The notes: generated by a model not told the origin, from the letters alone. A stretch of DNA of 64,000 nt from an uncultured Planctomycetales bacterium (GCA_964428315.1 CAYRXT010000005.1:12592-76591); one strand, 5' to 3'; positions 1 to 54,160 are shown, counted from the stretch's first letter. Numbers and translations are program-made.

Positions 1-1871
<1,871 letters not shown>

Positions 1872-1965
1872 GAATGTCCGGATAGTTAAGTTGCCGTGTT
1901 AAGAAGCCCCATTCTAACACAGGAGCATTTTTTGAGTCAATGATTTCGTCGGCCCGACACGCAAA

Positions 1966-10845: not shown

Positions 10846-11002
10846 TTTGGGTCTCCTTTATTATAAAAGGCCAATGGATATCTGCAGGCTCACGCCCGCA
10901 GGACCGCGAAGGTCTATTAAAATAACTGTAAATTGGCCATTTGTCAATTAATTCACTTTTGGATAGATTATTATTTTAATAATGTAAAAAGATTGCGGTA
11001 AT

Positions 11003-12004: not shown

Positions 12005-12013
12005 AGGGCCAAC

Positions 12014-13273: not shown

Positions 13274-13427
13274 TATAATTTCTCCTTAAATAAAATAGAG
13301 ACTAATAATTAGGAAAAGATTTAATTAAACTATATCAAAGGATGATTATCAAAACAAGGAAAAACTCGACAATTTGAATTCTGGAAGGCACGAATATCTT
13401 TTTCAGGAAGGGACTTGAGAACGTGCT

Positions 13428-14675: not shown

Positions 14676-14755
14676 TTTTTTTCGCTTTCTCCAGAAGGTC
14701 TTGGTCTATAGTACAGTATGGTTGCAGCGTTGTCTATCTTTTCCTGCCAAATTAC

Positions 14756-15385: not shown

Positions 15386-15448
15386 GGTCACAACCTTCCT
15401 TGTTTTCTTATTGCACTTGATGATAATACCGCCGGGTTAACTAACGGC

Positions 15449-16306: not shown

Positions 16307-16334
16307 GACTCTTCCTCCTTTTGTTGTTACCGTT

Positions 16335-18764: not shown

Positions 18765-18887
18765 GCGGCATACCTTTATTAGGGGTCATCAATGAATTGT
18801 ATTTTAACATTTTACAATATTTTAAAAAGTATTTAAATGATTTTTTAATAATATAAGAAAACGCTTTCCTTAATTATAACATATATT

Positions 18888-19748: not shown

Positions 19749-19751
19749 AGA

Positions 19752-20678: not shown

Positions 20679-20740
20679 ATGGTCAACCTGTTATGGGTCA
20701 ATCGCGCGGTCCCGGTTCTGTGCGCGGACGGACGTTTCTG

Positions 20741-22027
20741 TCAACGCCGGATCTTTTGCATCTGCCGCTCTTTGACGTCCTGGATGTCCTTGGCTGCCTG
20801 CTCGGGCGTCTTTTGCCCGATAATGATAGTCTGTATCCCCCTGGCGAACGCCTCGGACACAACTTCATCTTCATTATAAGGCCAGATGCTGGGATGCGTG
20901 CTCTGATCCATAGCGCCGACAAACTGCGCCAAGAGCTCGGGCGCTTCCGATAAGGCGTGACGGTTGGCCGGAAGGTTGCGCGTCTTCTCCGCCAGGAACG
21001 CCTGCTGTTTCTTGGCCGTCAACCAGCGGAGAAAATCGACGGCCTTGTCCTTGAGGGGCGAAGAGTTGTTGACGACGAATGAGGATCCGGCGCCGCCCCA
21101 TATCTTCAAGGGATAATTTTTGCTGACGGGCGGCGGCCGCATAACGCCGTAATCCAGGTCGGGATTCATCTTATGATAAACGTTCACGCACCACGATCCG
21201 TTAAAGGCGAAGGCCGCCCTTTCGAGGGCAAAATCCTGTTCCGCGTATTTATTACCCTTGATCACGATGCCCTCCATCAGGGCCTTATGATCGACGAGGG
21301 CCTTAAAAATGTTGAATACCTCAATCCAGTCGGGATCCGTATACGGCACCTCTCCCTGAAAGGTGTCCATAATCTTGTCCTCTCCCATAATATTGAAAGC
21401 ATAGTTCATGGCATAACAGTTGATCAGCCACAACTCGCTCCAACCCGAAACAAAAGGCGCGATCCCCACCCTGTTCAGGGCATCTACGGCCTCCAGGTAC
21501 TCATCAAAAGTGGAAGGAGGACGTCTGACACCCGCCTTTTCCAGTAACCCCCTGTTGTAGACCATTTGGACGCTGGTAATGTCGATGGGCACGCCGTACA
21601 GGCCCGGCTCGACACCCTCGAGATTGCCTTTTTCAAAACGGTTCACCGCCAGGGCCTTATCAAGAAAGGTCTTATGCCACCGACCGTTTTCGTCTTCAAA
21701 GGCATCCGTCAGATCGGCGACAAAACCGCTCTTGATAAACGAGGCGAAAATCTTTTTCTTGTCCAAAACGCCGTAAATATCCGGCAGGACGCTTGCCTGG
21801 GCCGCCGCTACTATTTTTCGTGAATAATCTCCTGAAGGGGCGTAAAGCTTGAACCTGACCTTGATCCCGGTCTCATCTTCATAGTCACGGGCAAGTTCCC
21901 GGAAGGCATCATGCCGGTCGGTCATCCAGTGCCAGACGACGAGAGTGTCCGGATCCCGGCGCGGCTGGCCGCATCCCGCGAACAACAGCAACACAGCCAT
22001 AATAACTATTGGCAGAGATCTGTTCAT
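20741..22027 (-). CDS. ABC transporter extracellular solute-binding lipoprotein (family 1, oligosaccharide)
   Basis: Lipobox LLFAGC; ~430 aa SBP_bac_1-like. No ATPase gene in the cluster, so a shared MsiK-type ATPase encoded elsewhere is assumed. Confidence 0.85.
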   Translation of the reverse strand: MNRSLPIVIMAVLLLFAGCGQPRRDPDTLVVWHWMTDRHDAFRELARDYEDETGIKVRFKLYAPSGDYSRKIVAAAQASVLPDIYGVLDKKKIFASFIKSGFVADLTDAFEDENGRWHKTFLDKALAVNRFEKGNLEGVEPGLYGVPIDITSVQMVYNRGLLEKAGVRRPPSTFDEYLEAVDALNRVGIAPFVSGWSELWLINCYAMNYAFNIMGEDKIMDTFQGEVPYTDPDWIEVFNIFKALVDHKALMEGIVIKGNKYAEQDFALERAAFAFNGSWCVNVYHKMNPDLDYGVMRPPPVSKNYPLKIWGGAGSSFVVNNSSPLKDKAVDFLRWLTAKKQQAFLAEKTRNLPANRHALSEAPELLAQFVGAMDQSTHPSIWPYNEDEVVSEAFARGIQTIIIGQKTPEQAAKDIQDVKERQMQKIRR

Positions 22028-22036
22028 AGGGCTTTC

Positions 22037-24451
22037 TCACATCCAGACTTTGACCTGATGCAGTCTGCCGTCGCCGAACGGCCGGATGAGGTTGCCTTCG
22101 ATTTCCTGGTCGTCCACCAGGATTTGAGACACCCCGCTTTCACGGCCCTTAGGATTAAGGATCTCGATCTGGTATATATCGCCGCGGAAGGGCCGCTGGA
22201 CGCTACATTTCTTCCATCCTTTGGGGATACAGGGATCGATCCTTAGTCCTTCGAAGTCCCGGCGCACCCCCAGGATCCATTCCGTCGCGGTCATGAAGCA
22301 CCACCCCGATGAACCCGTAATCCAGGTGAACGCGCCTTCACCGTAACGGTAGGGATTCTTCGGCCCGACAAGATATTCCGCAAGAACATAGGGTTCCGTT
22401 TTATAAAGATCCATATCCTTCTGGGCGTTCGGCATGATCTTTCTGACGGCCTCATAGGCCTTGTCCCCGCAGCCGCACATCGCGTAAGCGACGGCCATAA
22501 AAGTCGCCGCGTGGCAGAACACCGCGGCATTCTCCTTTGTCCCTTCGGAAAACATGCTGACGCGACCAAGCCGTCCGACCCATGAACTGTAAGCCGGGGC
22601 AAAAAGAGCGAGCCCGTGCGGACCGTTCAGATACCTTTCCACCGAACGGAAAAGTTTCTGTTTCCTCTCATCGCTGACAACGCCGGCCAGGATACCCCAC
22701 GCCTGTGCTGTCAGGAAGATCTTCCCTTCTTTGTCGTTCTTGCTGCCGTAAACCTGTCCCTTGTCATCGAAACCGCGGACATACCAGGAGCCGTCCCATC
22801 CCACCGCGTTGATCCGTTCGTCCATCGTCCTGGACATTTGGAGATACTCTTCTCTCTTGTCCTGCTGGCCGAGGAGGTCAAAGAGATCCGCCAGCATCTT
22901 CATGGAACGGACAAGGGCCTGGGCCAGCCAGATGCTTTCCCCTCGGTGCCTGATGCCGGCCGCGTCGATGGCATCGTTCCAGTCCGCGTGCCCGATCCGG
23001 GGCAGGCCCTTTTCTCCCACATCGTTAAAACAGTATAAAAGATTTTTCTCGAGATGCTCTATGAGGGTCCCCTCACCGTCCGTTTGAGATCCTCCGGTCC
23101 AATGAAGGTCGATCTCCCACCCGTCTTTCCATTTATCCTTCAGATAAGGGACATACTCCAACAGCAGGCTTTTATCTCCCGTTTCCTTGATATAGGCGCT
23201 GACTGTGGCCGTGAGCCAGACCTGGTGGTCTTTGTTCGGACGGTATTTGTGGGGCCCGGTGGTATCGGACCATCCCGGCGCGCTGGTCCCGTCGCGGCGA
23301 ATCAGTGACGCCAGCTTGAGAATCTTGGCGCGCGTCAGGTCGTGATTGATCGACACGATCGCTTCCGAATCCTGGCAGGAATCCCGGTATCCCCGTCCTC
23401 CCGATCCTTCGTGATAATAACTGGGAGACCGCGACCAGAAATTGCAGATATAGATCTGGTATTTGAGCCAAATATTGACAAGGACATTGAGATCTTTATC
23501 CGGCGTCTCCACCGTGACATTATCCAGGATCCTGTTCCGCCAGATCTGCTTCGTCCTGGCCAGTTCCTTTTCGGCCGTTCTGACATCCCTGTATTTGGCC
23601 AGGATCCTGGGGATCCTTGTGATCGCGTCAGACTGGCCGAGGACAACCGTGAATGTTTTCGTCTGGCCCGGTTTCAGCTTAACCCTGTGCCTGAAGGCCC
23701 CGATGCCGTCCTCCCCCGAACACAGCGACGTATTCCTGGCCCTGGTTTCTCCAATAGCCTGCGGATTCTCTTCCGTGTTATAAGGGCCGACAAATTCATT
23801 CTTCCGGGTGAAATGTCCCGATATCCCTAAAGACGGGGAAAAGAAAATCTGTCCGCGGAACGGCTGAATGTTCATCCCTTTCCATTCGGCGGTTTTTTTG
23901 GCAAAGATGGCCTTGTGTTTCTTGTCGAACCAGACGCGGTTGTAAAGGTTCATGATGTTGCGGTACCGCAATTCTTCATGGTAGTCGCCGATGAGGAATT
24001 CGACGTAAGGATAGACCTCCAGATTCCTGTCCCGACGGGACTTGTTTGTCATCTTGACGATCCAGACCTCACAGGGATCGTCCTCGGGCACAAAGTATGT
24101 CACCTGGGAGGCTATCCCGCTGTTAACGGATTCGATGTCGGTATAGCCTAGTCCGTGCCGGCATTCATAGAACGACGGTTTGACGCGCAACGGCTGGTAG
24201 GTCGCCGCCCAGGCCTTTTTCCCTTCACGCACAAAGAGGTATTTGCCGGGACGGTCAAAATGCCAGCATTCGGGAAGCCATCGGGTGATGCGGTGGCTGC
24301 GGCAGTCTTTATAAAAACTGTATCCCCCCGCGCACTGCGAGATGATCGAACAATATTCTTTGTTTGTGAGATAATTGATCCAGGGGCGGGGAGGCTTACA
24401 GGTCGATAGGATGAACTCGGTCCCATCCGAAGAAAAATGCCCGTATTTCAT
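22037..24451 (-). CDS. GH94-family glycoside phosphorylase (cellobiose/cellodextrin/chitobiose phosphorylase-like)
   Basis: 804 aa, cytoplasmic (no signal peptide). Contains GSGGRGYRDSCQDSE and IGHADWNDAID motifs and the (alpha/alpha)6 catalytic region typical of GH94. Substrate specificity not assignable. Confidence 0.8.
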   Translation of the reverse strand: MKYGHFSSDGTEFILSTCKPPRPWINYLTNKEYCSIISQCAGGYSFYKDCRSHRITRWLPECWHFDRPGKYLFVREGKKAWAATYQPLRVKPSFYECRHGLGYTDIESVNSGIASQVTYFVPEDDPCEVWIVKMTNKSRRDRNLEVYPYVEFLIGDYHEELRYRNIMNLYNRVWFDKKHKAIFAKKTAEWKGMNIQPFRGQIFFSPSLGISGHFTRKNEFVGPYNTEENPQAIGETRARNTSLCSGEDGIGAFRHRVKLKPGQTKTFTVVLGQSDAITRIPRILAKYRDVRTAEKELARTKQIWRNRILDNVTVETPDKDLNVLVNIWLKYQIYICNFWSRSPSYYHEGSGGRGYRDSCQDSEAIVSINHDLTRAKILKLASLIRRDGTSAPGWSDTTGPHKYRPNKDHQVWLTATVSAYIKETGDKSLLLEYVPYLKDKWKDGWEIDLHWTGGSQTDGEGTLIEHLEKNLLYCFNDVGEKGLPRIGHADWNDAIDAAGIRHRGESIWLAQALVRSMKMLADLFDLLGQQDKREEYLQMSRTMDERINAVGWDGSWYVRGFDDKGQVYGSKNDKEGKIFLTAQAWGILAGVVSDERKQKLFRSVERYLNGPHGLALFAPAYSSWVGRLGRVSMFSEGTKENAAVFCHAATFMAVAYAMCGCGDKAYEAVRKIMPNAQKDMDLYKTEPYVLAEYLVGPKNPYRYGEGAFTWITGSSGWCFMTATEWILGVRRDFEGLRIDPCIPKGWKKCSVQRPFRGDIYQIEILNPKGRESGVSQILVDDQEIEGNLIRPFGDGRLHQVKVWM

Positions 24452-42528: not shown

Positions 42529-42945
42529 TCAGTCTCCAATCACTTTGATTAAGGCGCGCTTGCGCCGGCGCCCGTCGAATTCGCCGTAAAATATCTGTTC
42601 CCACGGCCCGAAATCCAGCCGGCCCTTGGTGATGGCGACAACGACTTCCCTCCCCATGACCTGCCGTTTCATGTGCGCGTCGGCATTGTCCTCGCCGACG
42701 TTATGGCGGTATTGGGATACCGGCTCGTGGGGGGCAAGCCTCTCCAGCCAATCGTCGTAATCCTGGATAAGGCCGCTCTCGTCGTCATTAATGTAGACAC
42801 TCGCGGTAATATGCATGGCGTTCACAAGGACAAAACCCTCTTTCACACCGCTTTTGTCAACGGCCTCCTGGACTTTCCCGGTAACGTTGATGTAATCCCT
42901 TCTTGTCTTTGAATTAAACCAAAGCTCTTCGCGGTAGCTTTTCAT
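42529..42945 (-). CDS. YjbQ-family protein (UPF0047; secondary thiamine-phosphate synthase)
   Basis: 138 aa; YjbQ fold consensus ([25 protein letters not shown]...[15 protein letters not shown]). Confidence 0.75.
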
Positions 42946-43023: not shown

Positions 43024-44772
43024 TCATTTTTCCGCATCTCTCCACTTTTTTTCCAAAGAACGCCGCGCATCGATGAAAACAGGGTGTCCCGGAAAGGCCT
43101 CAAGACTTCTGCGAAGCGCACCGCGGATTTTGTCCCTTTCCCCTGACAAGACGGCGCTTTGGAGATACCGTTCCAGCGTCGGTCTATCCGGCTCAATGAG
43201 CCCGAGAACGTCCTCATAGCATGCCGCGGCCCGGGCATGTTCTCCACGGCGGGCATAGGCCCAGCAGAGATCTTTGCGGGCGTTGACATAATCCGGCCGC
43301 AGGGCCAAGGCCTTCCTTAAAAGCGCGATAGTCTTGTCCGGGTCGTGAATATGCGAAACCGCCAGATCACGTAAATAGACGGGATGTTCCGGATCCAGAC
43401 GAAGACTTTTTTGAAAATGTTCCCTCGCCTCGGCGTAAAGGCCAAGACGCGCGTAACAGACGCCCAGACGGTGATGCGGCCTCGGATACGAGGGATAGTG
43501 CTCCGCCAGAAAGGAGGCCTGCGCGAACTCGTCTCTCCACAAACCAATCAAGGACAATGAAGAGACAAACACGACACTCACTAATCCCAGCCTGACGGTG
43601 TACCGCAGACCCTGCCGCGTCGTGAACATCTTTCTGGAAAAAACACTATCCTCAAGCCAGAGGACCAAAGCGGCCATCATCCCGGCGAGGGGTATATACA
43701 AGAAACGCCAGGCCATGGGATTGATCAAGGGAATGATATTGGACGCCGGGACAAGCCCCAGGGCAAACCACAGGAGAAAAAAGAGCCGCCTCCTGTCTTG
43801 TCGGAAACTCCGAAACAGGATCCACACGCTGGCCGCGCACACCGTTACCGATACAAGGTTTTGGAGATCCCATAGAGGAAGAACATCGGGCCGGAAAACC
43901 GCAGGCAGAGGTTTGACCATGACCGGGAACAGGACAGCCAGCACATAACCGGCCAGGATATCGACGACCGTGAGGACATGGACAAAGAGGCTGTTCTCAA
44001 AAAGCGTCAATCCCGAAAGGCTCTGGGCCGGGAAAACAACCGCATAAACAACGGCATAAAAGGAAAAGACGCACAGAAAGCCAAGGTAATCGGTCCTCAA
44101 CCTCCGCCGGAAAGGCGCGACGCCGCGATGGCCGGGAAAACAATGATCGCAGGCCGGAAGGAGCCCCAGGAGAACAACCGCCGTTTCTTTGCTGAACAGT
44201 GCCAGTCCAAACAGCGCCACCGAGAGCGCTGTCCTCCGGCGCACATAAGCCAAGAGCGAAGTCGCGACAAAGAAAAAAGCCGCGATATCCGACCGGAATC
44301 CGATATTCACCACGGCCTCAGTGCCCGCGGGATGCAGGGCAAACAGGAGCGCGCTGAAAAAGGCCGTCTCTTTCCGGGAAAGAAGGGCGAAGATCAAAAA
44401 ATAGAAAACGACCGCGTTGGCGAGGTGAAGTAGGATATTCGTCAGATGATAGCCGAAAGGCCGGCCCCGCCAGAGATAATAATCCCAGAAAAATGTCGCG
44501 CTGACAACCGGCCGGTAGGTGACCGACCCGGACCCCAGATCCCCGCGGCCTTTGAGAAAGGCCTCGTCGCTGACCGTAAAATAGCTCTCGTCGAACAGAC
44601 GGACAACATTCTCCGGACGGGAATAGAACGTGTTGTTGACGATGATCAGGTAATCGTCACCGACAAAGTCATGTCCCAGGCTGGGCGCATAGAGCGTGCC
44701 AGCCAGCAACACAATCATAAGGATGTTGCGCCAATGTCCCGCCGGCGTTTTAACTAACGGGCTAGAAGGCAT
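43024..44772 (-). CDS. Polytopic GT-C-fold (PMT/ArnT/TMTC-like) membrane protein with C-terminal TPR repeats
   Basis: N-terminal HDFVGDDYLII motif and ~10 TM helices like DUF1736/PMT_2 glycosyltransferases. C-terminal ~180 aa are TPR-like (HHRLGVCYARLGLYAEAREHFQKSLRLDPEHP...). Start chosen at the ATG at 44772, an 11-nt overlap with the upstream gene. Confidence 0.6.
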   Translation of the reverse strand: MPSSPLVKTPAGHWRNILMIVLLAGTLYAPSLGHDFVGDDYLIIVNNTFYSRPENVVRLFDESYFTVSDEAFLKGRGDLGSGSVTYRPVVSATFFWDYYLWRGRPFGYHLTNILLHLANAVVFYFLIFALLSRKETAFFSALLFALHPAGTEAVVNIGFRSDIAAFFFVATSLLAYVRRRTALSVALFGLALFSKETAVVLLGLLPACDHCFPGHRGVAPFRRRLRTDYLGFLCVFSFYAVVYAVVFPAQSLSGLTLFENSLFVHVLTVVDILAGYVLAVLFPVMVKPLPAVFRPDVLPLWDLQNLVSVTVCAASVWILFRSFRQDRRRLFFLLWFALGLVPASNIIPLINPMAWRFLYIPLAGMMAALVLWLEDSVFSRKMFTTRQGLRYTVRLGLVSVVFVSSLSLIGLWRDEFAQASFLAEHYPSYPRPHHRLGVCYARLGLYAEAREHFQKSLRLDPEHPVYLRDLAVSHIHDPDKTIALLRKALALRPDYVNARKDLCWAYARRGEHARAAACYEDVLGLIEPDRPTLERYLQSAVLSGERDKIRGALRRSLEAFPGHPVFIDARRSLEKKWRDAEK

Positions 44773-47566
44773 GGTTGACACCGAACCAGAAACGCGTGTC
44801 TTTTTTCGGGTCGCGGATCGCCTGCGCCGCGTCGACACGCACGATGATCTTCTCGAGAAAAGAACCCAGGGAGACGTGGAAGCGCAGCCCCACACCGGCG
44901 TCTTTTTTCAGGTCGGAATCGTTGAAGGCTTTGAACCAGTTGTGTCCCGCCTCGGCGAAGACGACCCCGTCCACGGCCTCGAAGCCTATAATGTTATCGA
45001 AAATCTTGACATCCATTCTGGGGATGATCGGGAACCGGTATTCCAGGCTCCCCAGCGCGATGTTCGCCCCCCGCAACGTCTTCCGGTCATAGCCCCTCAG
45101 CCCGTCCGGCCCGCCGAGTTCAAAGAGACTGCGGTCGTTGGGATAGCCTCCGGCGAATTTCAGGCGCAGGGCCGCCTGGGAATGAACCGTGACCGGCCGG
45201 TACAGGGACACATCGATCCCGCCGCGGTTGAAAGACTGCGTGGCGCCCAGGAAATGCCCTGAATGTTCAAAAAAGGTGCTCACGCGGTAACCCTGCGAGG
45301 GGTCGAGCACAGGTTCACTGCGGTCGAAAAACAGGGCCGCCCCTGCAACCGCTTCGTTTTTGCGCAGGTAGGAGATATTGCGGTCGTCCTCCGCAGGCTC
45401 GAGCACCGTCCCGCGGTTGATCTCACGGTTGCGGATTAGATAAAACGTGACATGATCGTTGATCTGGGAAAGGCCGTAGGCCATAGGCCACAGCTCCTTA
45501 CGTAAATATATTTTCCCTCCGACGAGATCCCGGTCCCCGTTCTCGAGATCGGTCGTGTTGAACAGTTCGAATCCCGCCGTGGCCAGCGTGTGAAAAACAT
45601 TCTTCACCTGATAACCCACCCGCGTCTTGTGCAGCTGCTCCCCGAACTCGTAGCCGGTCGCCGCATAAAAATTCTGGTCGAACGGTTTCTGCAAAGAGGC
45701 CTTCATCCCCAGCCCGTTCGCGATGATCTCCGGCCCGACGACAAGGTTATACGCGTCCTCGGGCAGGAAAAGCGACATGTCATACAGCGAAAGATAGAGC
45801 GGAACCGGCTCGACGTTCAGCCGGCGGGGCCAGTAATTGTTCGTCCGGTCGATATCCAAAAGGGCCTTTTGGGGATCGACGATCACCTCGCGAATCCGCC
45901 CTCCATCTCCGGCCAAAAGCACATCCCGCTCTTTGTCCCCGCCCCACACAAGGTCCTGGGTCCGGCCGTCTTCAAAGACGACGAGCACATCCGCATCCAC
46001 CGCGATACCGCCGCGGTTTTCCACATGGATCGCATTGTGTTCGACGGCGTTGACGGCATAGTCAAAATATTCGGCCGTCCTCAGCCACTGCCTGAAAAAC
46101 TCCCCCAGGTCCTTCCCACTCTCTTCTTCAGCGATGCGGACAAAGTCCTTCGTGCTGAGATTTCCGAAACGGTATTCCCGGAAGATCCTCCGGAACACAG
46201 CCCGGAAGGCCTCCTCCCCCACTGTATAACGCAGCATGGCCATAATCGCCGAACCTTTACCGTAGGTAATGGAAAAAATGCTGCTCGGCTCCTCGTAACT
46301 GGAGAGCTCGCTCTGCACCGGGTAATCCCAGTTGGTCCGGGCGATGATCTTATAGCGGTAGTCGCGCGCCTTGCGGAAAGAGGTATTGGGGAGGAGCCAG
46401 TCTATCCATTCCGGCCATTCGACGACCTCGGCGTTTTCGCCGTATTTGGCCTCAAGATACTGAAGGATAAAATAGGAATTCACCCCCTCCTCCAGCCACA
46501 TCTCGGAGAATTCATCCATGCCGACGAGATTATAAAACCACTGGTGGCCCGTCTCGTGCGCGATCAGAAAATCGAAATGCCGTTTCAGGATCCGCGGCTC
46601 GTCGAAAACGCGCGTATCCATAAAGACCATATTGGACATCTGTTCCCCGCCATAAGCCAGATGAACCGGTGCAATGCTGAACTGTTCATAGGGATATTCC
46701 CCGAACAGCTGTGTATAGAACTCCATCAAATCCCCGGCGCTGTCCAGGGCCATGGCGGCGTGCTCCTCGTCGCCGGGGAGATAATAACAGCGGAGCTCGG
46801 CCTCCGCTCTCCTGGTGCTCATGACCCGGTACCGCGGACTTAAGGCTAGGGTGAATTCCCTTACCGGGAGCCGCGTGGAGATCTTCAGGGTCTTCTTGCC
46901 CTCGCCGGTCGCACGCTCTTCGTCCAAGGTGCCCGTATGGATCACGCACATGTCTTCCGCCACCGTCAGCTCAACATCATAAATCGCGGCGTCGCTGAAG
47001 AACGGCCTATGGAAAGGATAGAACGGGGGATTGTTCCAGCCCCTTTCATCATGAACCGACAGAACGGGATACCAACGCGAGAGGGCAAATATGTCGTCAA
47101 TCCACCCGAAGCGGCCGTAGGAATGGGGTATCCGGAGGGTGAATCCCATGGACACGACGGCCTCCTCGCCTGGCATGAGAGGCTGTTCGAGGAGGACCTT
47201 CAATAAGGTGTCGTCCTCTCCCATTATCTCAAAGGCTCCCGGAATGTCGTTGACCCTGACATCGGAGAAGTGCATGTCCGGCACGGGGAAGCCGTCGGGA
47301 AAGGCATCAACATTAAAATAGCCTGCGTAGCGCATCATGAAGCTTTTTTCCTCATCGGAATACCGCCGGTTCGGATAGATATGGAAAAAGATTTCATGAA
47401 GGGGAGCCTCGCTCCTGTTTTGGTAGGTCACGCGCTGTTGGGCTGAGATTGTTTTTTCGTCCGTATCGACCGACGCCCGGATCTCGTACCGAGGCTGCGC
47501 GCCCGCCGCGGCCACCCATACCAGCGGGATCGCCAGCAAACCGATTCTCCAGAATATTTTTCTCAT
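44762..47566 (-). CDS. Secreted M1-family zinc aminopeptidase fused to a C-terminal Omp85/BamA-like outer-membrane beta-barrel
   Basis: Signal peptide MRKIFWRIGLLAIPLVWVAAAGA. HETGHQWF-x18-WLEEG gluzincin motif. The last ~330 aa are alternating amphipathic strands with GPDGLRGYD, GVGLRFHVSLGS and a terminal RFWFGVNHAF aromatic beta-signal. GGAGGTG SD upstream. Confidence 0.75.
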   Translation of the reverse strand: MRKIFWRIGLLAIPLVWVAAAGAQPRYEIRASVDTDEKTISAQQRVTYQNRSEAPLHEIFFHIYPNRRYSDEEKSFMMRYAGYFNVDAFPDGFPVPDMHFSDVRVNDIPGAFEIMGEDDTLLKVLLEQPLMPGEEAVVSMGFTLRIPHSYGRFGWIDDIFALSRWYPVLSVHDERGWNNPPFYPFHRPFFSDAAIYDVELTVAEDMCVIHTGTLDEERATGEGKKTLKISTRLPVREFTLALSPRYRVMSTRRAEAELRCYYLPGDEEHAAMALDSAGDLMEFYTQLFGEYPYEQFSIAPVHLAYGGEQMSNMVFMDTRVFDEPRILKRHFDFLIAHETGHQWFYNLVGMDEFSEMWLEEGVNSYFILQYLEAKYGENAEVVEWPEWIDWLLPNTSFRKARDYRYKIIARTNWDYPVQSELSSYEEPSSIFSITYGKGSAIMAMLRYTVGEEAFRAVFRRIFREYRFGNLSTKDFVRIAEEESGKDLGEFFRQWLRTAEYFDYAVNAVEHNAIHVENRGGIAVDADVLVVFEDGRTQDLVWGGDKERDVLLAGDGGRIREVIVDPQKALLDIDRTNNYWPRRLNVEPVPLYLSLYDMSLFLPEDAYNLVVGPEIIANGLGMKASLQKPFDQNFYAATGYEFGEQLHKTRVGYQVKNVFHTLATAGFELFNTTDLENGDRDLVGGKIYLRKELWPMAYGLSQINDHVTFYLIRNREINRGTVLEPAEDDRNISYLRKNEAVAGAALFFDRSEPVLDPSQGYRVSTFFEHSGHFLGATQSFNRGGIDVSLYRPVTVHSQAALRLKFAGGYPNDRSLFELGGPDGLRGYDRKTLRGANIALGSLEYRFPIIPRMDVKIFDNIIGFEAVDGVVFAEAGHNWFKAFNDSDLKKDAGVGLRFHVSLGSFLEKIIVRVDAAQAIRDPKKDTRFWFGVNHAF

Positions 47567-47597
47567 CCCCCACCTCCGTCGGATTATTTTGCGGCCT

Positions 47598-49595
47598 TCA
47601 TTCCTTCAGGCTCAATGGATTGAAATTCTCGATGGCCATCATCATGTACGCCGTCCCCGCCACCGAACCGGTCCGGTCGCCGTAAGGTGTTCGCCAGCCA
47701 TGACCGGTATCGGCGTATTCCAGAGTCGCGTAAGGCAAGCATCCTTCCCCCTGGCCCAGAGGCGAGGGGCTGGAAATGATCAGCTTGTTGAGCTCGTCCA
47801 GATAACGCGAGGCCTTCCGCCGGTAATACACCGCCTTCATATCGTTGCCTCCGGCGGAAAAATAGTCGGCGAGGATCTGGAAAGAGATTGCCATCTGCGA
47901 CGTCCATTCCGGTGAGACCATGCCGCCCCGCGGCATGTGCTTGTGCCTGGCGAAATCAAAACCCGTGACCTCGACCTCGACGCCGCTCGGACGGGGATAC
48001 ATCACCGTCACGCCGCAGTGTTCTTCGGCAAAATTCATGATCCGTTCGGGATCCATCCCCAACGATTCAAGCATCTCCGGACCCAGGGCCGCCAGAGACC
48101 AGGCGAAGGTATCGGTGGCGATGGTAGCATCACCCCGGCCCCTGTTTACCGGCGGCCTCCGGTAATCCCCGCTGTGTTTCACCATGGCGTAGGTCTTGAG
48201 CCAGCTTGCGGTCTTTCGGCGGGCCACATCGTATTTGTCCTTGTTCGTTAGCCGGTGGAGCATATCAAAGAAGGCGTAGGCGTCCAGGTTGTGCTCGGTG
48301 GCGAACCAGTCGAAATCGGGTCCACCGCGCAGTCCGCCGGCCGGGTCCTGGTCCTGGAGCGCAATCAGCCATCCGGCGATGGCTTCGGCCAGCGGAAGAT
48401 AAGAAGAATCCCCCGTTTTATGTTGATACTGCATAGCGGCGATGCCTGCCCATATGTTGGGACCGCAGTGGACGGTATACTCGGCGACTTCGCCGGAATC
48501 AAAGAAGTACGCGTTGTAAAAACCGGCATATCCTTGTGACATCATTCTCGAAAAGAAATTGAGGATCTTCTTCGCCCGCGGGACGTCTTCCGCCAGCAGA
48601 AAACAGTTGACGGCCAGGGCCTGATCGTAGATGAAGGCCCAGTCCTCGATGACGCCGACCTCTCCTTCAAAACTTTTCACGAGGCCCGTCGTCGAGCTCT
48701 GATGCCGGGCAAGCCACGCGTGCATCTGTTTCCAGACGGAATCTCTGAGGCCCTTTTTCTGTCGCTCGAGCATCTCCCTCTCGTCCTCCATCATCCTCTC
48801 CCGGCGCACCAGAAGATCATACTCGTCTTCCAAAGGCCCACGCCTTTCCTTCATTTCACGGAGTGTTTTTTTCAGGTCCATGATCGTTTTTTCCGACAGT
48901 TTCAACTCCCGGGCCATGGCGTCTTCCTGCTGTGTCCGCACGCGCAGGCCCTCCTGCGCCTCCTCAAGCCGGGCCGTCAAAGTCCGGATTTCGCGTGAAT
49001 ATTCGGCTATATCTTCCGCCAGCCTTGCTTTCCGGGATTCGATAGTCTCCAGGAGGCCGCCCAGGCGCGCCTCTTTCTGCTGAACCGTCACCAGGGCATC
49101 GACAAGCGCCGCGTTTCTTTCCTGCAGGCGCAGGTTATCCCTAAGACTGACAAGAAAAAGGGCAAAAAAGACACACACGGCCGCTGTCGCCAGGCGGGGG
49201 GCCCATACACTCCAGCGCGCATAACGGGTGAGCCGTTCCCGGTCAGATTCCGCTATTTCAACAAACCGCAGACCCGCCTGGAAATCAGCGGGAATGCGTT
49301 CCCCGGCCCGTTCCGTCCAGACCACCTCGCCCAAGGCCTCCACCGGAGGGCCGGACAAAGGAACGCGTATACGCAACCGGAGACGCGGCGGCCGGTTGTC
49401 CCGAGGCTTAAGCCAGTCCTCAAACTGATTGATGCCAAGACAAATGCCTCCGCGGCTGATATTGCAGGTGTAGCCCTGCTTCCAGACCGTTCCGTCCTCC
49501 TCCGGCGCCGCGCCGGGAGCGCGGTACTCCACGGGAAAGACGCTCTGCAAACGAATAAATTCTCTCTTATCGAGATGTAGAGTCTTTTTCTTCAT
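47598..49595 (-). CDS. PilZ domain - TM helix - long coiled coil - C-terminal ~340-aa globular (possibly alpha/alpha-toroid) domain protein
   Basis: N-terminal KREFIRLQSVFPV...YTCNISRGGICLGIN (PilZ), TM WAPRLATAAVCVFFALFLVSL, ~170 aa heptad E/R/L region, then an aromatic/Gly-rich domain (HCGPNIWAGIAAMQYQ...AEAIAGWLIALQDQDPAGGLRGG). Start at the ATG at 49595. Confidence 0.65.
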   Translation of the reverse strand: MKKKTLHLDKREFIRLQSVFPVEYRAPGAAPEEDGTVWKQGYTCNISRGGICLGINQFEDWLKPRDNRPPRLRLRIRVPLSGPPVEALGEVVWTERAGERIPADFQAGLRFVEIAESDRERLTRYARWSVWAPRLATAAVCVFFALFLVSLRDNLRLQERNAALVDALVTVQQKEARLGGLLETIESRKARLAEDIAEYSREIRTLTARLEEAQEGLRVRTQQEDAMARELKLSEKTIMDLKKTLREMKERRGPLEDEYDLLVRRERMMEDEREMLERQKKGLRDSVWKQMHAWLARHQSSTTGLVKSFEGEVGVIEDWAFIYDQALAVNCFLLAEDVPRAKKILNFFSRMMSQGYAGFYNAYFFDSGEVAEYTVHCGPNIWAGIAAMQYQHKTGDSSYLPLAEAIAGWLIALQDQDPAGGLRGGPDFDWFATEHNLDAYAFFDMLHRLTNKDKYDVARRKTASWLKTYAMVKHSGDYRRPPVNRGRGDATIATDTFAWSLAALGPEMLESLGMDPERIMNFAEEHCGVTVMYPRPSGVEVEVTGFDFARHKHMPRGGMVSPEWTSQMAISFQILADYFSAGGNDMKAVYYRRKASRYLDELNKLIISSPSPLGQGEGCLPYATLEYADTGHGWRTPYGDRTGSVAGTAYMMMAIENFNPLSLKE

Positions 49596-49607
49596 GGCTC
49601 CCAAGGT

Positions 49608-50723
49608 TTACTCGGTCCCGGCATGCTCCTCGGCCAGACGGATACGTCTGGCAACCGGGGGATGATCATAGAAAAGGATCACATCCAACCTGCGGGGATC
49701 CCATTCGGCCAGATTCCGTTCGGCCAGCTTTCGCATCATGGAAATGAAATCATCCGTCTTTCCCGTCAGGGTGATCGCGAAACGGTCGGCCCGGACCTCC
49801 AGGTGCCGGCTGAAGGCGTTCATTAGGGGAGTCAGGACCAGCCCGACGAGCGAAAAGGCCAGCAGGATCACCGGCAGAAACGCGATATCATCAAGTCGTT
49901 CAAAACCGAACCAGGGCAGAGCCGCGGAAAGGAAGAGGTGGACCAGAAAGAAACTCCCCGCCGCGGCCAGCGTCTGCGCGAGAGCCATCCAAACGATGTC
50001 ATGATGTTTATAATGGCTCATCTCATGCGCCACGACGGTCTCGATTTCCTCGCGGGTAAAACCTTTGACAAGCGTATCGCTCAGGACCACGCGCCGCGAA
50101 GAGCCCAGGCCGCAGATAAAGGCATTGGCCTTTGAGGATTTGCGCGAAAGGTCTATCGTATAGACATCCTTAAGAAGTACGCCGCAGCGGTCAAATAAAC
50201 GCGCGATCCGCCGGCGGAGCTCTTCATCTTCAACCGGTGTATACCTGAAAAAAAGCGGGACGATGACGCGTGGGGTGATGTGGGCCAGGAACAGCGAAAA
50301 CAACAGCCAGAAACCCGTCGCGGCCATCCACCATGTCCGAGGCCAGAGGCCGAGGAAAACACAGATGACGTGCGCGAGGGTAAAAAATACGAGAAATCCG
50401 ACAGCGGCCTTTTTCGCTTCGTCCCGACACCATGCCCAGAACGACTGCGCGGAAAGACCGAAACGGTGTTCCAGATAAAAGGTCCCGTACATGTTGAAGG
50501 GCAGATGAAGCAATAAAAGGAAGGTCCCGAAAAGGACAAGAAACAGCGAGCGCGCAAAAAACGCCCCTTCCGCCACACTCCATGACCATTCACGCAGTCC
50601 GGCGGACCACCCGGCAAAGGACCACACACACAGAGCCGCAAGGTCAAAGGTAAGCGAGAGGAAAAAAAGCCGCCTCTTGATCCAATGGTAATGTTTCGCT
50701 CTGCCGTGAGTTCCGTTATTCAC
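49608..50723 (-). CDS. M48-family (Ste24/HtpX-like) integral-membrane zinc metalloprotease
   Basis: HEMSHY (HExxH) after several TM helices; C-terminal helical region; GTG start. Confidence 0.85.
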   Translation of the reverse strand: MNNGTHGRAKHYHWIKRRLFFLSLTFDLAALCVWSFAGWSAGLREWSWSVAEGAFFARSLFLVLFGTFLLLLHLPFNMYGTFYLEHRFGLSAQSFWAWCRDEAKKAAVGFLVFFTLAHVICVFLGLWPRTWWMAATGFWLLFSLFLAHITPRVIVPLFFRYTPVEDEELRRRIARLFDRCGVLLKDVYTIDLSRKSSKANAFICGLGSSRRVVLSDTLVKGFTREEIETVVAHEMSHYKHHDIVWMALAQTLAAAGSFFLVHLFLSAALPWFGFERLDDIAFLPVILLAFSLVGLVLTPLMNAFSRHLEVRADRFAITLTGKTDDFISMMRKLAERNLAEWDPRRLDVILFYDHPPVARRIRLAEEHAGTE

Positions 50724-50733
50724 GTCCGTCTCG

Positions 50734-51126
50734 TCAGGGGTTGCGCCGGGATTTCAAATCCTCGATAAAGGTGAAGAAGCGGTCATCGTCCCTCAGGTTG
50801 TTGAGATCACCGTCATTCATGATATGATCAAGATCCCGGTATCCGCATTCCACGGCCGTCCGGAGCGACGCCAGGGCGTTTTCTATGTCGCCGGTGAGCG
50901 AATAACTGCAGGCCAGATTGTACAGAACAACGGGATCACGGGGCTTCAGCGCCAGGAGTTTCTGATCGACACAGAGCCCCTTATCGAAAAGTCCTCTCTT
51001 GGTATAAAGATCCCCTAGGGCCATCAGGGCTTCGATGAAGTCCGGCCGTTTGGCCAACACACCCTCATAAAAACAGATCTCATAGTCCAGGTCTTTAAAC
51101 GAAGGACGTCCCAATGAGCTCCCCAT
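50734..51126 (-). CDS. TPR-repeat protein
   Basis: Three TPR-like hairpins (ALMALGDLYTKRGLFDKGLCVDQKLLALKPRDPVVLYNLACSYSLTGDIENALASL). Confidence 0.6.
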   Translation of the reverse strand: MGSSLGRPSFKDLDYEICFYEGVLAKRPDFIEALMALGDLYTKRGLFDKGLCVDQKLLALKPRDPVVLYNLACSYSLTGDIENALASLRTAVECGYRDLDHIMNDGDLNNLRDDDRFFTFIEDLKSRRNP

Positions 51127-51136
51127 CTTTTACGCG

Positions 51137-52303
51137 TTATGTCTTGATTTTCCGGACAAAATCGCCCATCCGGACCAGGGCCTCTTTGATGCTTTCATAG
51201 CTGGAGGCATAGGATATCCGCACGTGACCGTCCATCGAAGGCCCGAAGGCCACGCCCGGGACAACGGCAACCTTCTTTTTCTTCAGCAATTGCTGGGCGA
51301 ATTCCATAGAGGACAGTCCTGTCGAACGGATCGAGGGGAAAACGTAAAACGCCCCTTCCGGCATGGGGCAACTCAGGCCCATGGCGTTGAGCCCCTGAAC
51401 GATGTACCGTCTGCGCCGGTTATATTCCTTCTTCATCTCTATCACCGACGGATATCCTGTCTTGAGGGCATCGACAGCGGCCATCTGAGAGACAATGGAA
51501 GCGCAGAGCATCGTATACTGATGGATCTTCGTCATGGCTGCTATGATCCTCGCCGGGCCGCAGGCGTACCCCAGACGGAATCCCGTCATGGCGTAACTCT
51601 TGGAGAACCCGTTTAGATAGATATGCCGCTTCTTCATCCCCTTGAGAACGCCAAAGGGCGTATGGCTGAAGTCGTAGGTCAGCTCGTCATAAACCTCGTC
51701 GGTAATCACGAGCAGATCGTTCTTCTCGGCCACGCGCGCGATGGCGCGCAATTCCTGGCGGGTATACGAGGCCCCGGTGGGATTGGCCGGGTAGTTGATC
51801 ATCAAGGCCTTGACGCCTCTGCGGCATGCCCGCTCGATCTGTCCGGGGCTCAGCTTGAAGCCTTCCCGCGAACCGGTTTTCAGAAAAACGGGCCGCCCCC
51901 CGGCGAGATCGACCGTCGGACCGTAGGAGACATAGGCCGGCTCGGGAATCAGGACCCGGTCCCGCGGGTTCATGATGGCCCGCATGGCCAGGTCAACGCC
52001 CTCGCTGACACCGACGGTAATCAGGATCTCCTCCTGGGGGTCGTACACCAGGCCGTAACGGCGCTTGAGAAAATGGGCGATCTCCCGCCGCAGCTCCAGC
52101 ATGCCCTTGTTGGACGTGTAGGAGGTGAATCCCTGTTCAAGGACATAGATGGCCGTTTCCCTGATGGGCCAGGGCGAAGAAAAATCCGGTTCACCCACAC
52201 CCAGCGATATGACCTCCTTCATGTTCAGAACCAAGTCAAAGAAGGCCCGGATGCCCGACGGCGGAAGCCGTTCGACTTTCTGTGATATCATCGGCTTGTT
52301 CAT
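51137..52303 (-). CDS. Class I/II PLP-dependent aminotransferase (aspartate/aromatic aminotransferase-like)
   Basis: Fold-type I signatures NYPANPTG and the PLP-Lys region YLNGFSKSYAMTGFRLGY; 388 aa. Confidence 0.9.
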   Translation of the reverse strand: MNKPMISQKVERLPPSGIRAFFDLVLNMKEVISLGVGEPDFSSPWPIRETAIYVLEQGFTSYTSNKGMLELRREIAHFLKRRYGLVYDPQEEILITVGVSEGVDLAMRAIMNPRDRVLIPEPAYVSYGPTVDLAGGRPVFLKTGSREGFKLSPGQIERACRRGVKALMINYPANPTGASYTRQELRAIARVAEKNDLLVITDEVYDELTYDFSHTPFGVLKGMKKRHIYLNGFSKSYAMTGFRLGYACGPARIIAAMTKIHQYTMLCASIVSQMAAVDALKTGYPSVIEMKKEYNRRRRYIVQGLNAMGLSCPMPEGAFYVFPSIRSTGLSSMEFAQQLLKKKKVAVVPGVAFGPSMDGHVRISYASSYESIKEALVRMGDFVRKIKT

Positions 52304-52322: not shown

Positions 52323-52814
52323 TTAAAAAGAAATGTTCAGACGTCTCCGGCGGCGGGTCTTCTTGAGGATCTGCCCGTCTTCCTTGTATTTCTTCAGCAA
52401 GAAGTGCGTGGCCGTGCTGCGGACATTTTCCATCGGAGCGAGTTTTGAGGCCACAAAGCTCGCCACGGTCTGGATATCCGGCCCTTCCACGATAAGCAGA
52501 AGGTCGTAAGCGCCCGAAACAAGATAGCAGCTCACTACCTCCGGAAAACTGTAAATGCGCTCGGCCAGATAATCAAACCCCACGTTCTTCTGCGGCGTGA
52601 TTCCCACCTCAATCAGCGCCCGGACCAGCCCTTTTTGGCTTTCCAGGAGTTCCGGATTGACCACAGTCTTATAACCGACAATGACCCCGGACCGCTCATA
52701 CCGTCTGATGGTTTTTTTCACGGTATCAACCGATTTCCCGGTCAATTTGGCGATTTCCGAAGCGCTCAGCCGGGCGTCCTTAGAGAGAATATCCAGTATT
52801 TCATCCATGATCAT
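52323..52814 (-). CDS. Lrp/AsnC-family transcriptional regulator
   Basis: N-terminal HTH (LDILSKDARLSASEIAKLTGKSVDTVKKTIRR) and C-terminal RAM domain. Trimmed to ATGATCATG at 52814; the upstream part of the track ORF is read-through. Confidence 0.85.
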   Translation of the reverse strand: MIMDEILDILSKDARLSASEIAKLTGKSVDTVKKTIRRYERSGVIVGYKTVVNPELLESQKGLVRALIEVGITPQKNVGFDYLAERIYSFPEVVSCYLVSGAYDLLLIVEGPDIQTVASFVASKLAPMENVRSTATHFLLKKYKEDGQILKKTRRRRRLNISF

Positions 52815-53095
52815 CCGCTCCTCTTTAAACGTTTGTGACTTAAGAAAGGCCGCCGTATCATCCGTCTCCGACGGACTATTGCCCCCCCGGCGTGATTGAC
52901 ATTCTATACCATTTCCGCGGGCAGCGCAAACAAAACGGGGAAAATGAAACTCTTCGGACTCACGGCCATAGTCTCCTGATATTCTTCGGCGAAATCCGCC
53001 GAAGCCAACCCCGCTTCGCTCCAAAATTTCGCTTCGCTTCATTCGAGGGGTTCGCGGGGTTGATCCGCGGAAAGCGTCCGGACAGGAAGAGGCCT

Positions 53096-54160
53096 CTACC
53101 TGTGCCTCTTCAGGTCAATAAGGTCCTTGATCATGGCCATGTCCTTTTTCAGATCCTGAACCACCTGCCGGAGATCCCTGACCCTCTCCTTAAGATGGAC
53201 GTTGGTCTCTTCAAGCTCTTTGATCTGAAGGGTCAGGGCCTCCACGGGGAGCGGAACGGCCAGTTCGGTTTCTAGTCCGGCAATCGCCGTTTCCACCTGC
53301 CCGATCTCGCCCTCCAAGGCTTGCCTTTCTTCTTCCAGGCGATCCTTCTTCTCGCGCGCCTCCTCGAGCGGCCGCTCCTTACGTTCGACACCTCTCTGTA
53401 TCTCCTCCTTGAGCTTCTCAACTCTTCGGCTCAATCGCGCATTGTCTTTACGTACCCGGCTTATCTGTCTCGCGAGCTTTCGATTCTCGTTCTCCAGCTT
53501 TCTCAAATCCTCATCCGATAAAACCCCCTGCCGGATATCCGCAAGGAGGTCCTGTCCAGCCGCCGCCTGGACGGCATCCGTCTCCAGGATCCTGTTTTGA
53601 ATCTTCGCGATCTCTTCCTGCGTCTTTCCGAGAGCCTGTTGTTTTTCCGACAGCAACCGGCTATGCTGTTCCTCGAGAGCGGCATGCTTTTTTTCCAAGG
53701 TCTCCACCTGTGTGCTCAACGGCAGGAGTGTCTTTTTCTCGTGATCGACCTTATCGCGAAGCCGGCCGACCTCTTTCTCAAGGACTCTCCTTTTGAGTTT
53801 GAGTTCATGAACCGTCGCATTGTGCGTCTGCCGGGAATCCGGTTCGGGTGAAGACGGCAGCACGGGCTTCCTGATCTGCGGCATAAGAAGATCAATCTCC
53901 ATTTCAAGCGCAAGGACCTGCTGTCTCAAGCGGTTGTGCTCATCCGTCAGCCTCTCGTTCTCATTGACCAGCTGAAGGGCCAGCTCTCTCAGCTCTCTGA
54001 CATTCATCCGGAGGATATTGGCGACCCATTCCGAGGGAAGGGCGAATTCTTCCTGAACCTCTGCGCCTTCGGGTGAACCCGAAGGCGCGGTCTGCGCCGA
54101 AACGGCGGCGGAAAAACATAAAAACAGGCCGCACAGCGTGAGGATACGGTGTCTCTTCAT
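53096..54160 (-). CDS. Secreted coiled-coil protein (hypothetical)
   Basis: Signal peptide MKRHRILTLCGLFLCFSAAVSAQTA followed by ~300 aa of continuous E/K/R/L/Q heptad-like sequence. Confidence 0.55.
   Translation of the reverse strand: MKRHRILTLCGLFLCFSAAVSAQTAPSGSPEGAEVQEEFALPSEWVANILRMNVRELRELALQLVNENERLTDEHNRLRQQVLALEMEIDLLMPQIRKPVLPSSPEPDSRQTHNATVHELKLKRRVLEKEVGRLRDKVDHEKKTLLPLSTQVETLEKKHAALEEQHSRLLSEKQQALGKTQEEIAKIQNRILETDAVQAAAGQDLLADIRQGVLSDEDLRKLENENRKLARQISRVRKDNARLSRRVEKLKEEIQRGVERKERPLEEAREKKDRLEEERQALEGEIGQVETAIAGLETELAVPLPVEALTLQIKELEETNVHLKERVRDLRQVVQDLKKDMAMIKDLIDLKRHR

Follow-up and report, generated by a model that had tools for sequence, protein, structure and literature searches.

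A candidate envelope-remodelling gene cluster of Omnitrophota with an M1 peptidase-Omp85 fusion and a PilZ protein carrying a glycosidase-like domain

The window analysed here is a 64,000-nucleotide (nt) stretch of DNA from an uncultured Planctomycetales bacterium (GCA_964428315.1, CAYRXT010000005.1:12592-76591), taken here as a member of Omnitrophota. It carries five closely spaced minus-strand genes (Table 1), which encode a small TPR protein, an M48 protease, a PilZ protein, a fusion of an M1 peptidase with an Omp85 barrel (M1::Omp85) and a GT-C-like polytopic protein with C-terminal TPRs. A sequence-only reading had described these genes as a trans-envelope module gated by cyclic di-GMP (c-di-GMP). 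All five open reading frames (ORFs) are present where that reading located them, with one adjustment: the end of the PilZ gene at 47598 stands, and its start extends to a TTG at 49604, the ATG at 49595 chosen earlier being residue 4. We propose that the genes between the small TPR gene and YjbQ occupy a slot, that is, a variable site in an otherwise colinear housekeeping block that ancestrally held four envelope enzymes. The chances are about even that the slot represents a vertically inherited, loosely coupled envelope-remodelling cluster of largely autonomous units, so far seen only in Omnitrophota. Two of its protein architectures, M1::Omp85 and the PilZ protein with its glycosidase-like domain, are new in the sense that neither was found described in the literature searched.

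The genes of the window cluster are tightly packed and co-directional. The gap between the TPR and M48 genes is 10 nt, that between M48 and PilZ 3-12 nt and that between PilZ and M1::Omp85 31 nt, and the M1::Omp85 and GT-C genes overlap by 11 nt; 4-nt gene overlaps occur in orthologous loci. On the upstream side, the aminotransferase gene lies 10 nt from the TPR gene and the AsnC/Lrp gene 19 nt further, both in the same direction. On the downstream side, YjbQ starts 78 nt after the GT-C gene and marks the far edge of the slot. All four slot genes encode envelope proteins, and the flanking genes encode cytoplasmic housekeeping proteins. Promoter and terminator scans stayed near shuffle expectation and gave no internal signals, and neither Rfam nor tRNA scans gave a match in the window, so no c-di-GMP riboswitch was detected.

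Table 1. Position and description of the cluster genes, their backbone neighbours and a sugar-utilisation group in the window.
Feature	Coordinates	Strand	Product length	Remarks
Small TPR protein	50734-51126	minus	130 aa	ORF present as described earlier
M48 protease	49608-50723	minus	371 aa	ORF present as described earlier
PilZ protein	47598-49604	minus	668 aa	from TTG start
M1::Omp85	44762-47566	minus	934 aa	
GT-C-like polytopic protein with C-terminal TPRs	43024-44772	minus	582 aa	ATG start, identical to the start of the NCBI call (P0241)
Class I/II aminotransferase	51137-52303	minus		upstream backbone; Pfam and NCBIfam
AsnC/Lrp regulator	52323-53042 (as ORF)	minus		upstream backbone; Pfam and NCBIfam
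YjbQ/UPF0047	42529-42945	minus		downstream backbone; Pfam UPF0047 3e-36
GH94 phosphorylase	22037-24451	minus		sugar-utilisation group
Solute-binding protein	20741-22027	minus		sugar-utilisation group
TPR and GH2 TIM-barrel domain protein	16335-18764	minus	809 aa	sugar-utilisation group

M1::Omp85 matches Pfam Peptidase_M1 (96 bits, residues 273-494) and Omp85 (PF01103; 50.3 bits against a cut-off of 24, residues 613-934). An AlphaFold model built from 40 homologues, with a predicted local distance difference test (pLDDT) score of 85.7 and a predicted template modelling (pTM) score of 0.87, contains a signal helix (2-20), a beta domain (26-262), a thermolysin-like catalytic domain (267-495) and an all-beta sandwich (503-563), followed by a 40-residue linker (564-605) and 16 long strands (606-932). 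M1 domains I-III are covered by the Foldseek alignments of the model with ERAP1, IRAP and tricorn factor F3, which extend over ~575 columns. The alignments end at ~575-600 columns; the helical domain IV is absent, and the barrel takes its place. Among 40 sequences, the HExxH-X18-E zinc site (H337, E338, H341, E360) and the catalytic Y435 are invariant. The exopeptidase motif reads G306-G-E308-Q309 (GG-EQ) as opposed to the canonical GAMEN, and its invariant E308 aligns with the GAMEN glutamate of glutamyl aminopeptidase 4kx7, the differences being a one-residue deletion and the replacement of Asn by Gln. The L6 loop motif of the barrel, LRGY (823-826), is invariant, as are G822, L823, R824 and G825. 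A POTRA domain was sought with Pfam, which gave no match, and in the model, where no beta-alpha-alpha-beta-beta unit occurs anywhere in residues 503-605. The earlier description of an Omp85 barrel whose POTRA region is replaced by an M1 peptidase is thus borne out by both Pfam and the model.

All 343 close homologues of M1::Omp85 contain both M1 and Omp85, and every homologue named for an organism belongs to Candidatus Omnitrophota. An exhaustive HMMER search returned 1425 proteins at E<=1e-30, with full-length fusions down to 29% identity and many M1-only relatives. Omnitrophota are uncultured, very small and widespread bacteria that presumably rely on other cells or feed on them as predators, and almost nothing is known of how their envelope works. 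Distant fusions (33-37% identity) are also found outside the cluster, among genes for lipid A and outer-membrane lipids in L148:8320-14319 and L150:3549-12451. A DUF374-LpxK fusion lies directly upstream, and Lip_A_acyltrans lies downstream in both loci. M1::Omp85 stands between LpxK and a lipid-A acyltransferase in L148 and near MMPL and a lipid-A acyltransferase in L150. This setting hints at a link with outer-membrane lipid biogenesis. Neighbouring LPS genes in L148, L150 and L066 also put LPS or lipid A forward as a candidate acceptor for the GT-C. In L147, M1::Omp85 lies between a MurA-like gene and TIM.

In known Omp85 proteins both ends of the barrel lie in the periplasm, which makes a periplasm-facing M1 domain the most likely arrangement. 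An opposite topology, in which M1::Omp85 is a type Vd-like autotransporter whose barrel carries the M1 domain to the cell surface, and may or may not release it there, for the digestion of prey or of peptides in the surroundings, is unlikely. It draws on the arrangement of an N-terminal enzyme followed by an Omp85 barrel, which is that of PlpD, and on the linker from the sandwich to strand 1. The same two options, periplasmic or exported, have been raised for Metallophos-Omp85 fusions (Heinz and Lithgow, PMC4104836). For Omnitrophota, predation and a large number of hydrolases have been reported (bioRxiv 10.1101/2023.11.21.568195), and the cluster has an amino-acid regulator and an aminotransferase upstream. 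However, all described type Vb and Vd transporters possess the POTRA domain that is absent here, and a 580-residue zinc enzyme would have to traverse a closed 16-strand barrel. The pTM score suggests an M1 module confidently placed against the barrel as opposed to a detached passenger, and the barrel's nearest solved relatives by sequence are the POTRA-containing 9ccg (3.4e-7) and TamA (E 0.0025, 0.011), with no solved TpsB or PlpD at E<=1. A type Vd-like topology would concern one component and could be compatible with the loosely coupled cluster; a surface-exported M1 would fit a predatory or host-dependent Omnitrophota lifestyle.

The PilZ protein combines a putative ligand-binding domain with a predicted periplasmic part of a different kind. 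Its PilZ domain (PF07238) scores 39.4 bits against a cut-off of 22.5 over residues 13-129 and carries both ligand motifs, R14-E-F-I-R18 (RxxxR) and N48-I-S-R-G-G53 ((D/N)xSxxG). Across 40 homologues R14, R18 and G53 are invariant and N48 is conserved in at least 90%. The structure model (pLDDT 85.4) comprises a PilZ beta-barrel (24-117), a continuous helix (119-225) that contains the single transmembrane segment (136-158), a return helix (231-300) and an (alpha/alpha)6 barrel (322-660). The two helices are modelled as a coiled coil of ~70 residues each. Both the PilZ assignment and the proposed order of PilZ domain, one transmembrane helix, coiled coil and globular domain are therefore upheld, the former by a Pfam score above gathering and conserved motifs, the latter by the model. 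The C-terminal domain has in the model the (alpha/alpha)6 barrel fold of six-hairpin glycoside hydrolases (MmpH, GH76, GH15, GH8 and others), and its fold matches share 7-16% identity, the nearest fold, MmpH, only 10-14%. Its invariant acidic residues are D327, E375, E437, D441, D492, D550, E566 and D632. It could not be placed in a specific glycoside hydrolase (GH) family: there is no Pfam GH match and no sequence match in the PDB, and catalytic residues cannot be mapped. A sequence-profile search of the PDB with this domain returned only coiled-coil noise and the PilZ protein YpfA, and a precomputed GH76 match appears in only 2 of 120 homologues. The same (alpha/alpha)6 fold is found in sugar epimerases and terpene cyclases. 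Together, motifs and model make it probable that the protein, whose family has >1000 members, is a receptor for c-di-GMP and has its carbohydrate-active output domain in the periplasm.

Shorter relatives of the PilZ gene are also found. PilZ-only ORFs of 143-177 residues, with or without a transmembrane helix, occur at L019:9393-9926, L024:3262-3708, L075:3267-3791 and L088:1025-1456, in the exact position that the full PilZ protein occupies in other genomes. They keep RxxxR and D/NxSxxG and look like stand-alone functional PilZ proteins produced by truncation, as opposed to decayed remnants. In L152, a PilZ protein homologue (42% identity) adjoins pseudopilin genes. In two complete Omnitrophota chromosomes (L003:13630-14763 and L004:14562-15695), whose loci have no PilZ protein, a response-regulator-EAL gene of the c-di-GMP phosphodiesterase type lies just downstream of YjbQ.

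The two remaining slot genes encode polytopic membrane proteins. The M48 protein matches Peptidase_M48 (PF01435; 108 bits, 5e-31) and Peptidase_M48_N (PF16491; 91 bits, 1e-25) and has ~6-7 hydrophobic helices. Its zinc site (H233-E234-xx-H237, E309), together with D313, is at least 95% conserved in 33 orthologues. By these features it is a Ste24-type (M48A-like) polytopic zinc metalloprotease of the inner membrane, in agreement with the location proposed for it earlier. The GT-C-like protein is harder to classify. It has at least seven strongly hydrophobic helices, and the loop after the first helix carries an acidic motif, FVGDD (36-40), in which F36 and D40 are invariant and D39 is conserved in at least 90%; R87, H116, P148, E152, R160 and K195 are also invariant, and H147 and E196 conserved in at least 90%. 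An acidic DxD, DD or DE motif in the first extracytoplasmic loop and a polytopic core are sequence marks of GT-C enzymes. PMT_2 matches occur in 7 of 40 family members (best 1.7e-8), several homologues are labelled 'protein O-mannosyl-transferase' by JGI, and the GT-C/TPR family extends into other phyla. However, in Pfam the window protein matches only TPR models, with no PMT, PMT_2 or DUF1736 match even at E<=0.1. A profile of its membrane part found no solved structure by sequence, and the full-length profile found only TPR proteins. The sequence-only view of a GT-C protein with TPRs is thus sustained for the repeats, the polytopic core, the acidic motif and the homologues' PMT_2 matches, while the domain models that it invoked do not recognise the window protein itself; the GT-C assignment is plausible but transitive.

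The distribution of the slot genes was assessed in ~150 related loci scored by phmmer against the window proteins and in a scan of species-representative genomes, which gave 59 loci titled Omnitrophota, 'uncultured Planctomycetales' metagenome-assembled genomes or bacterium. The backbone has a fixed order (AsnC, aminotransferase, small TPR, slot, YjbQ, PfkB, Era), and the slot genes always follow the order M48, PilZ protein, M1::Omp85, GT-C. They occur in many different subsets, M1::Omp85 alone being the commonest. Among 36 complete species loci anchored on M1::Omp85, 15 contain M1::Omp85 alone, 7 have it with GT-C, 6 with M48, 4 with M48 and GT-C, 2 with M48 and the PilZ protein and 2 with a PilZ-only ORF and GT-C, which amounts to 2 loci with the full PilZ protein, 12 with M48 and 13 with GT-C. 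None of the four genes is found in 12 of the 20 complete loci anchored on the small TPR gene; M1::Omp85 alone is found in 4, the PilZ protein with GT-C in 2, and a PilZ-only ORF and M48 with M1::Omp85 in 1 each. Look-ups anchored on the PilZ gene yield further loci that lack M1::Omp85, with M48, PilZ protein and GT-C in L064 and PilZ protein and GT-C in L065; the PilZ protein thus accompanies GT-C without M1::Omp85 in L064, L065, L082 and L083. M48 and GT-C are never in the slot without M1::Omp85 or the PilZ protein in the loci sampled, and none of the four slot genes is obligatorily tied to another. Almost all related loci retain the aminotransferase and AsnC genes, with the module genes or without them. 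YjbQ (73-83% identity across loci) is the immediate neighbour of the small TPR gene in loci that lack the module.

The small TPR protein belongs to this backbone. It matches Pfam TPR_17/TPR_8 and NCBIfam TPR_END_plus (1.5e-17), and no hydrophobic segment that could serve as a signal peptide or transmembrane helix was found in it. It is a cytoplasmic protein. Its gene is kept without the other four in 12 of the 20 TPR-anchored loci, where YjbQ follows it directly, and therefore counts as part of the backbone and not as a mark of the module. In two separate assemblies, the small TPR protein and M1::Omp85 share one continuous frame (L033:3053-6256; L074:10004-13270, P0046, 1088 aa), and the signal-like hydrophobic segment becomes internal (for example ...KRKTTKIAIGIVFLLVWASLASA, followed directly by DS...). 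The joined frame may be a real fusion or the product of a lost stop codon or an assembly error. A real fusion would point to the M1::Omp85 precursor as a possible target of the TPR protein.

The complete set is rare and old. M48, the PilZ protein and M1::Omp85 recur in the same order with a nearby GT-C in L066, L149 and L151, so that the synteny expected of the cluster is indeed present in relatives, and phmmer confirms the orthology of the small TPR, M48, PilZ and M1::Omp85 proteins in these divergent loci. The GT-C gene itself changes. In L066 a GT9 gene, heptosyltransferase-like, and a GT2 gene are inserted before GT-C/TPR (region 12843-16395). In L149, where M1::Omp85 shares 38% identity, the GT-C is a TMEM260_N protein (10945-12519) directly downstream of M1::Omp85, and in L151 (30% identity) a small GT2 followed by a PMT_2 GT-C (12546-14797) lies a few genes downstream; two or three other genes separate M1::Omp85 from GT-C in L066 and L151. 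By phmmer, the replacement GT-Cs of L149 and L151 are not similar to that of the window. Three GT-C families (TMTC-like with TPR, TMEM260_N and PMT_2) occur near the cluster, twice with a small GT2, the usual donor-making partner of a GT-C, and this recurrence suggests that selection has maintained a GT-C at this place. These three O-mannosyltransferase-type families hint at periplasmic glycosylation in Omnitrophota.

Other genes also enter the block. A large TPR-DUF3857-transglutaminase-core protein is encoded just upstream of the small TPR gene at L066:4100-6472, L149:1371-3764 and L151:1922-4147, with a DUF1805 gene alongside in L066 and L151. The window lacks this large protein, which may represent another ancestral component of the cluster. 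Foreign genes have been taken up at L079:13320-17557, which holds a restriction-modification set (a cytosine methyltransferase, a Vsr-like endonuclease and a putative restriction enzyme), and at L052:12836-13518, which holds a PIN-type toxin-antitoxin pair. A HhH-GPD glycosylase gene lies between the PilZ and M1::Omp85 genes at L120:13417-14055 and L149:7343-8014.

These patterns bear on the claim from which the analysis started, namely that the five products form one c-di-GMP-gated trans-envelope machine for the export or assembly of glycans or glycoproteins, with one component per layer. The predicted locations do reach from the cytoplasm through the inner membrane and periplasm to the outer membrane, the PilZ motifs are preserved, the full set recurs at deep divergence in L066, L149 and L151, and the modelled coiled coil could span the periplasm if extended. 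However, of the 36 M1::Omp85-anchored loci counted above, 15 contain M1::Omp85 alone and only 2 the full PilZ protein. The PilZ protein and GT-C exist without M1::Omp85, both M1::Omp85 and the PilZ protein also occur outside the cluster, the small TPR gene is a backbone gene, and foreign genes are inserted between members in some genomes. The cluster contains no processive synthase, flippase, ABC, Wzx/Wzy component or dedicated porin, and Omp85 barrels are not known as polysaccharide conduits. An integrated machine fails this comparative test on its loss patterns and for want of a synthase and an exporter, and we consider it very unlikely, although lineages that retain the complete set might still build one. 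A more general caution is that an operon with 'one part per envelope layer' can be what is left of an ancestral cluster in which each part functions, and is lost, on its own.

Conserved order alone is no proof of a functional link, because the housekeeping flanks are equally colinear: AsnC, aminotransferase, YjbQ, PfkB, Era and PAC2 keep their order to the same depth as the slot genes. The latter may be neighbours only through inherited Omnitrophota gene order, with no common process, and the varied combinations of loss and the insertion of mobile and defence genes between members would both be expected under such frozen synteny. We hold this to be a serious but rather unlikely alternative, given that all four variable genes encode envelope proteins, unlike the flanks, that three different GT-C families occur near the cluster, that start and stop codons overlap in a manner typical of translational coupling, and that M48 and GT-C are never alone in the slot in the loci sampled.

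The reading with about even chances is the loosely coupled envelope-remodelling cluster. The order M48, PilZ, M1::Omp85, nearby GT-C is kept down to 30-38% M1::Omp85 identity, and the parts appear autonomous because varied subsets occur and because M1::Omp85 or the PilZ protein is also found alone in unrelated contexts. Taking the domain identities, catalytic and ligand motifs, folds and comparative distribution as observed, we infer substrates, a periplasmic orientation of M1, c-di-GMP control of the hydrolase domain and cooperation between the parts along the following lines. The four slot enzymes would act in the same compartment, largely autonomously and not as one complex. Firstly, the Ste24-type M48 zinc protease would sit in the inner membrane. 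Secondly, c-di-GMP bound at the cytoplasmic PilZ domain would, through the transmembrane helix and the coiled-coil hairpin, change the activity or position of the periplasmic (alpha/alpha)6 glycoside-hydrolase-like domain. Thirdly, the M1 aminopeptidase, held at the outer membrane by its POTRA-less barrel, would trim the N-termini of peptides or envelope proteins in the periplasm. Finally, the GT-C would move a sugar from a polyprenyl-phosphate carrier to a periplasmic acceptor selected by its TPR domain.

Several points weigh against this reading. Colinearity across the phylum extends to the entire block with its housekeeping genes, and in some genomes the cluster is broken up by unrelated genes (restriction-modification, toxin-antitoxin, HhH-GPD). 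The 12 empty loci could belong to one clade and reflect a single block deletion, and the nestedness of M48 and GT-C is statistically insecure for that reason. The GT-C assignment is transitive, passing through homologues to a membrane domain that has no sequence relative among solved structures, and the side of the barrel on which the M1 domain lies is argued by analogy with known Omp85 proteins.

A bolder version would see in the cluster a periplasmic bacterial counterpart of the eukaryotic secretory-protein toolkit of the endoplasmic reticulum, with c-di-GMP tuning the turnover of envelope glycoproteins in ultra-small, possibly predatory bacteria. The cytoplasmic TPR holder, client-fused in two lineages, and the Ste24-type protease would keep the translocation of large exported enzymes clear; a GT-C of the PMT/TMTC/TMEM260 type would O-glycosylate periplasmic and outer-membrane proteins; the c-di-GMP-controlled, mannosidase-like domain would trim their glycans; and the trimming or degradation of clients at the outer membrane would fall to the ERAP-like M1 on its Omp85 barrel. 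This is a long shot.

The remainder of the window offers a few further observations. The AsnC/Lrp ORF comprises 239 residues as listed against ~161 in homologues, and its Pfam domains begin at about residue 80. ORF calling has probably added 75-80 residues at the N-terminus, and the real start would lie near 52811. Directly upstream of AsnC, at 53096-54160 (minus), a 354-residue protein has an N-terminal signal-like hydrophobic segment and is otherwise almost all coiled coil; its counterparts at the same position in L001 and L002 share ~25% identity and combine coiled coil with TPRs. A sugar-utilisation group occupies 16335-24451 (minus; Table 1). GC content is highest (62.6% against ~55%) in the part of the window that holds a 569-residue ORF at 180-1889 (plus), for which Pfam gave no match at E<=1e-5.

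Comparison with known systems supports the earlier expectation that no described exopolysaccharide, secretion or O-mannosylation system matches the cluster. The c-di-GMP-dependent exopolysaccharide systems (Bcs, Alg, Pel, Pga) are set apart by the processive GT2 synthase and the BcsC/AlgE/PelB/PgaA-type porin, neither of which was found in the cluster or its flanks; PgaA and PrsT TPR models score far under their cut-offs. The Lap system is set apart by its HAMP-GGDEF-EAL receptor and periplasmic cysteine protease target, neither of which is present in the window cluster; a transglutaminase-like gene is found upstream of the TPR gene in L066, L149 and L151 only, not in the window. Searches of the literature, including Omnitrophota with BamA or c-di-GMP, gave no description of an M1-Omp85 fusion, of the cluster or of a PilZ-coiled-coil-(alpha/alpha)6 fusion.

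The PilZ protein resembles Alg44 and BcsA in its cytoplasmic PilZ domain with canonical motifs, followed by a transmembrane helix and a periplasmic part, and LapD in its potential for inside-out signalling. It shares a carbohydrate-active output fold with the periplasmic (alpha/alpha)6 hydrolases of the BcsZ type. Unlike in these systems, the receptor and the glycosidase-like domain lie in one polypeptide, joined by a long coiled coil, and the protein has no synthase, membrane-fusion-protein-type domain, HAMP or GGDEF-EAL module. If confirmed, a PilZ domain wired across the membrane to a glycosidase-like domain would show in simple form how c-di-GMP can act on the periplasm with no synthase involved.

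The GT-C-like protein shares with PMT/PMT_2, TMTC1-4 and TMEM260 a polytopic N-terminal domain and an acidic pair after the first helix, and with the TMTCs the C-terminal TPRs, yet it differs from all of them in matching no GT-C Pfam model or solved structure by sequence. The small GT2 near the GT-C in L066 and L151 recalls ArnT/ArnC. The M48 protein has the HExxH motif and downstream glutamate common to Ste24, HtpX and BepA, and its N-terminal helical domain is of the Ste24 type, whereas HtpX equivalog models score far under cut-offs. A BepA-like arrangement, in which an M48 protease and TPRs act on an Omp85 protein, was considered and rejected: the window M48 is membrane-integral, and the neighbouring TPR protein is cytoplasmic, separately encoded and without a signal peptide.

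M1::Omp85 shares with BamA and TamA the Omp85 Pfam domain, a 16-strand barrel and the L6 (V/L)RG(Y/F) motif, and TamA is among its nearest solved barrels. It was also considered as the BamA of the phylum and rejected on account of its missing POTRA and patchy distribution: the gene is absent from the locus itself in 15 of the 20 TPR-anchored relatives, and the BamA equivalog model scores 20 bits against a cut-off of 297. It is unlikely to be an essential assembly factor because it is patchy within the phylum. Domains I-III superpose on those of the M1 aminopeptidases PepN, ERAP1/IRAP and F3, with an invariant HExxH-18-E site, transition-state tyrosine and GAMEN-aligned glutamate, whereas domain IV is replaced by a membrane barrel and GAMEN by GG-EQ. 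Fusions of enzymes or other modules to Omp85 are known from the patatin/PlpD, Metallophos, WD40 and 'noNterm' subfamilies, which are among 10 described (Heinz and Lithgow 2014, PMC4104836). M1::Omp85 shares with them a 16-strand barrel, a non-POTRA or enzymatic N-terminal module and the question of whether that module is periplasmic or exported. PlpD is a patatin-POTRA-Omp85 protein (type Vd), unlike M1::Omp85, which has no POTRA at all, and an M1 partner (domains I-III) is not among the 10 subfamilies. An M1 peptidase in the POTRA position therefore extends the short list of enzyme-Omp85 fusions.

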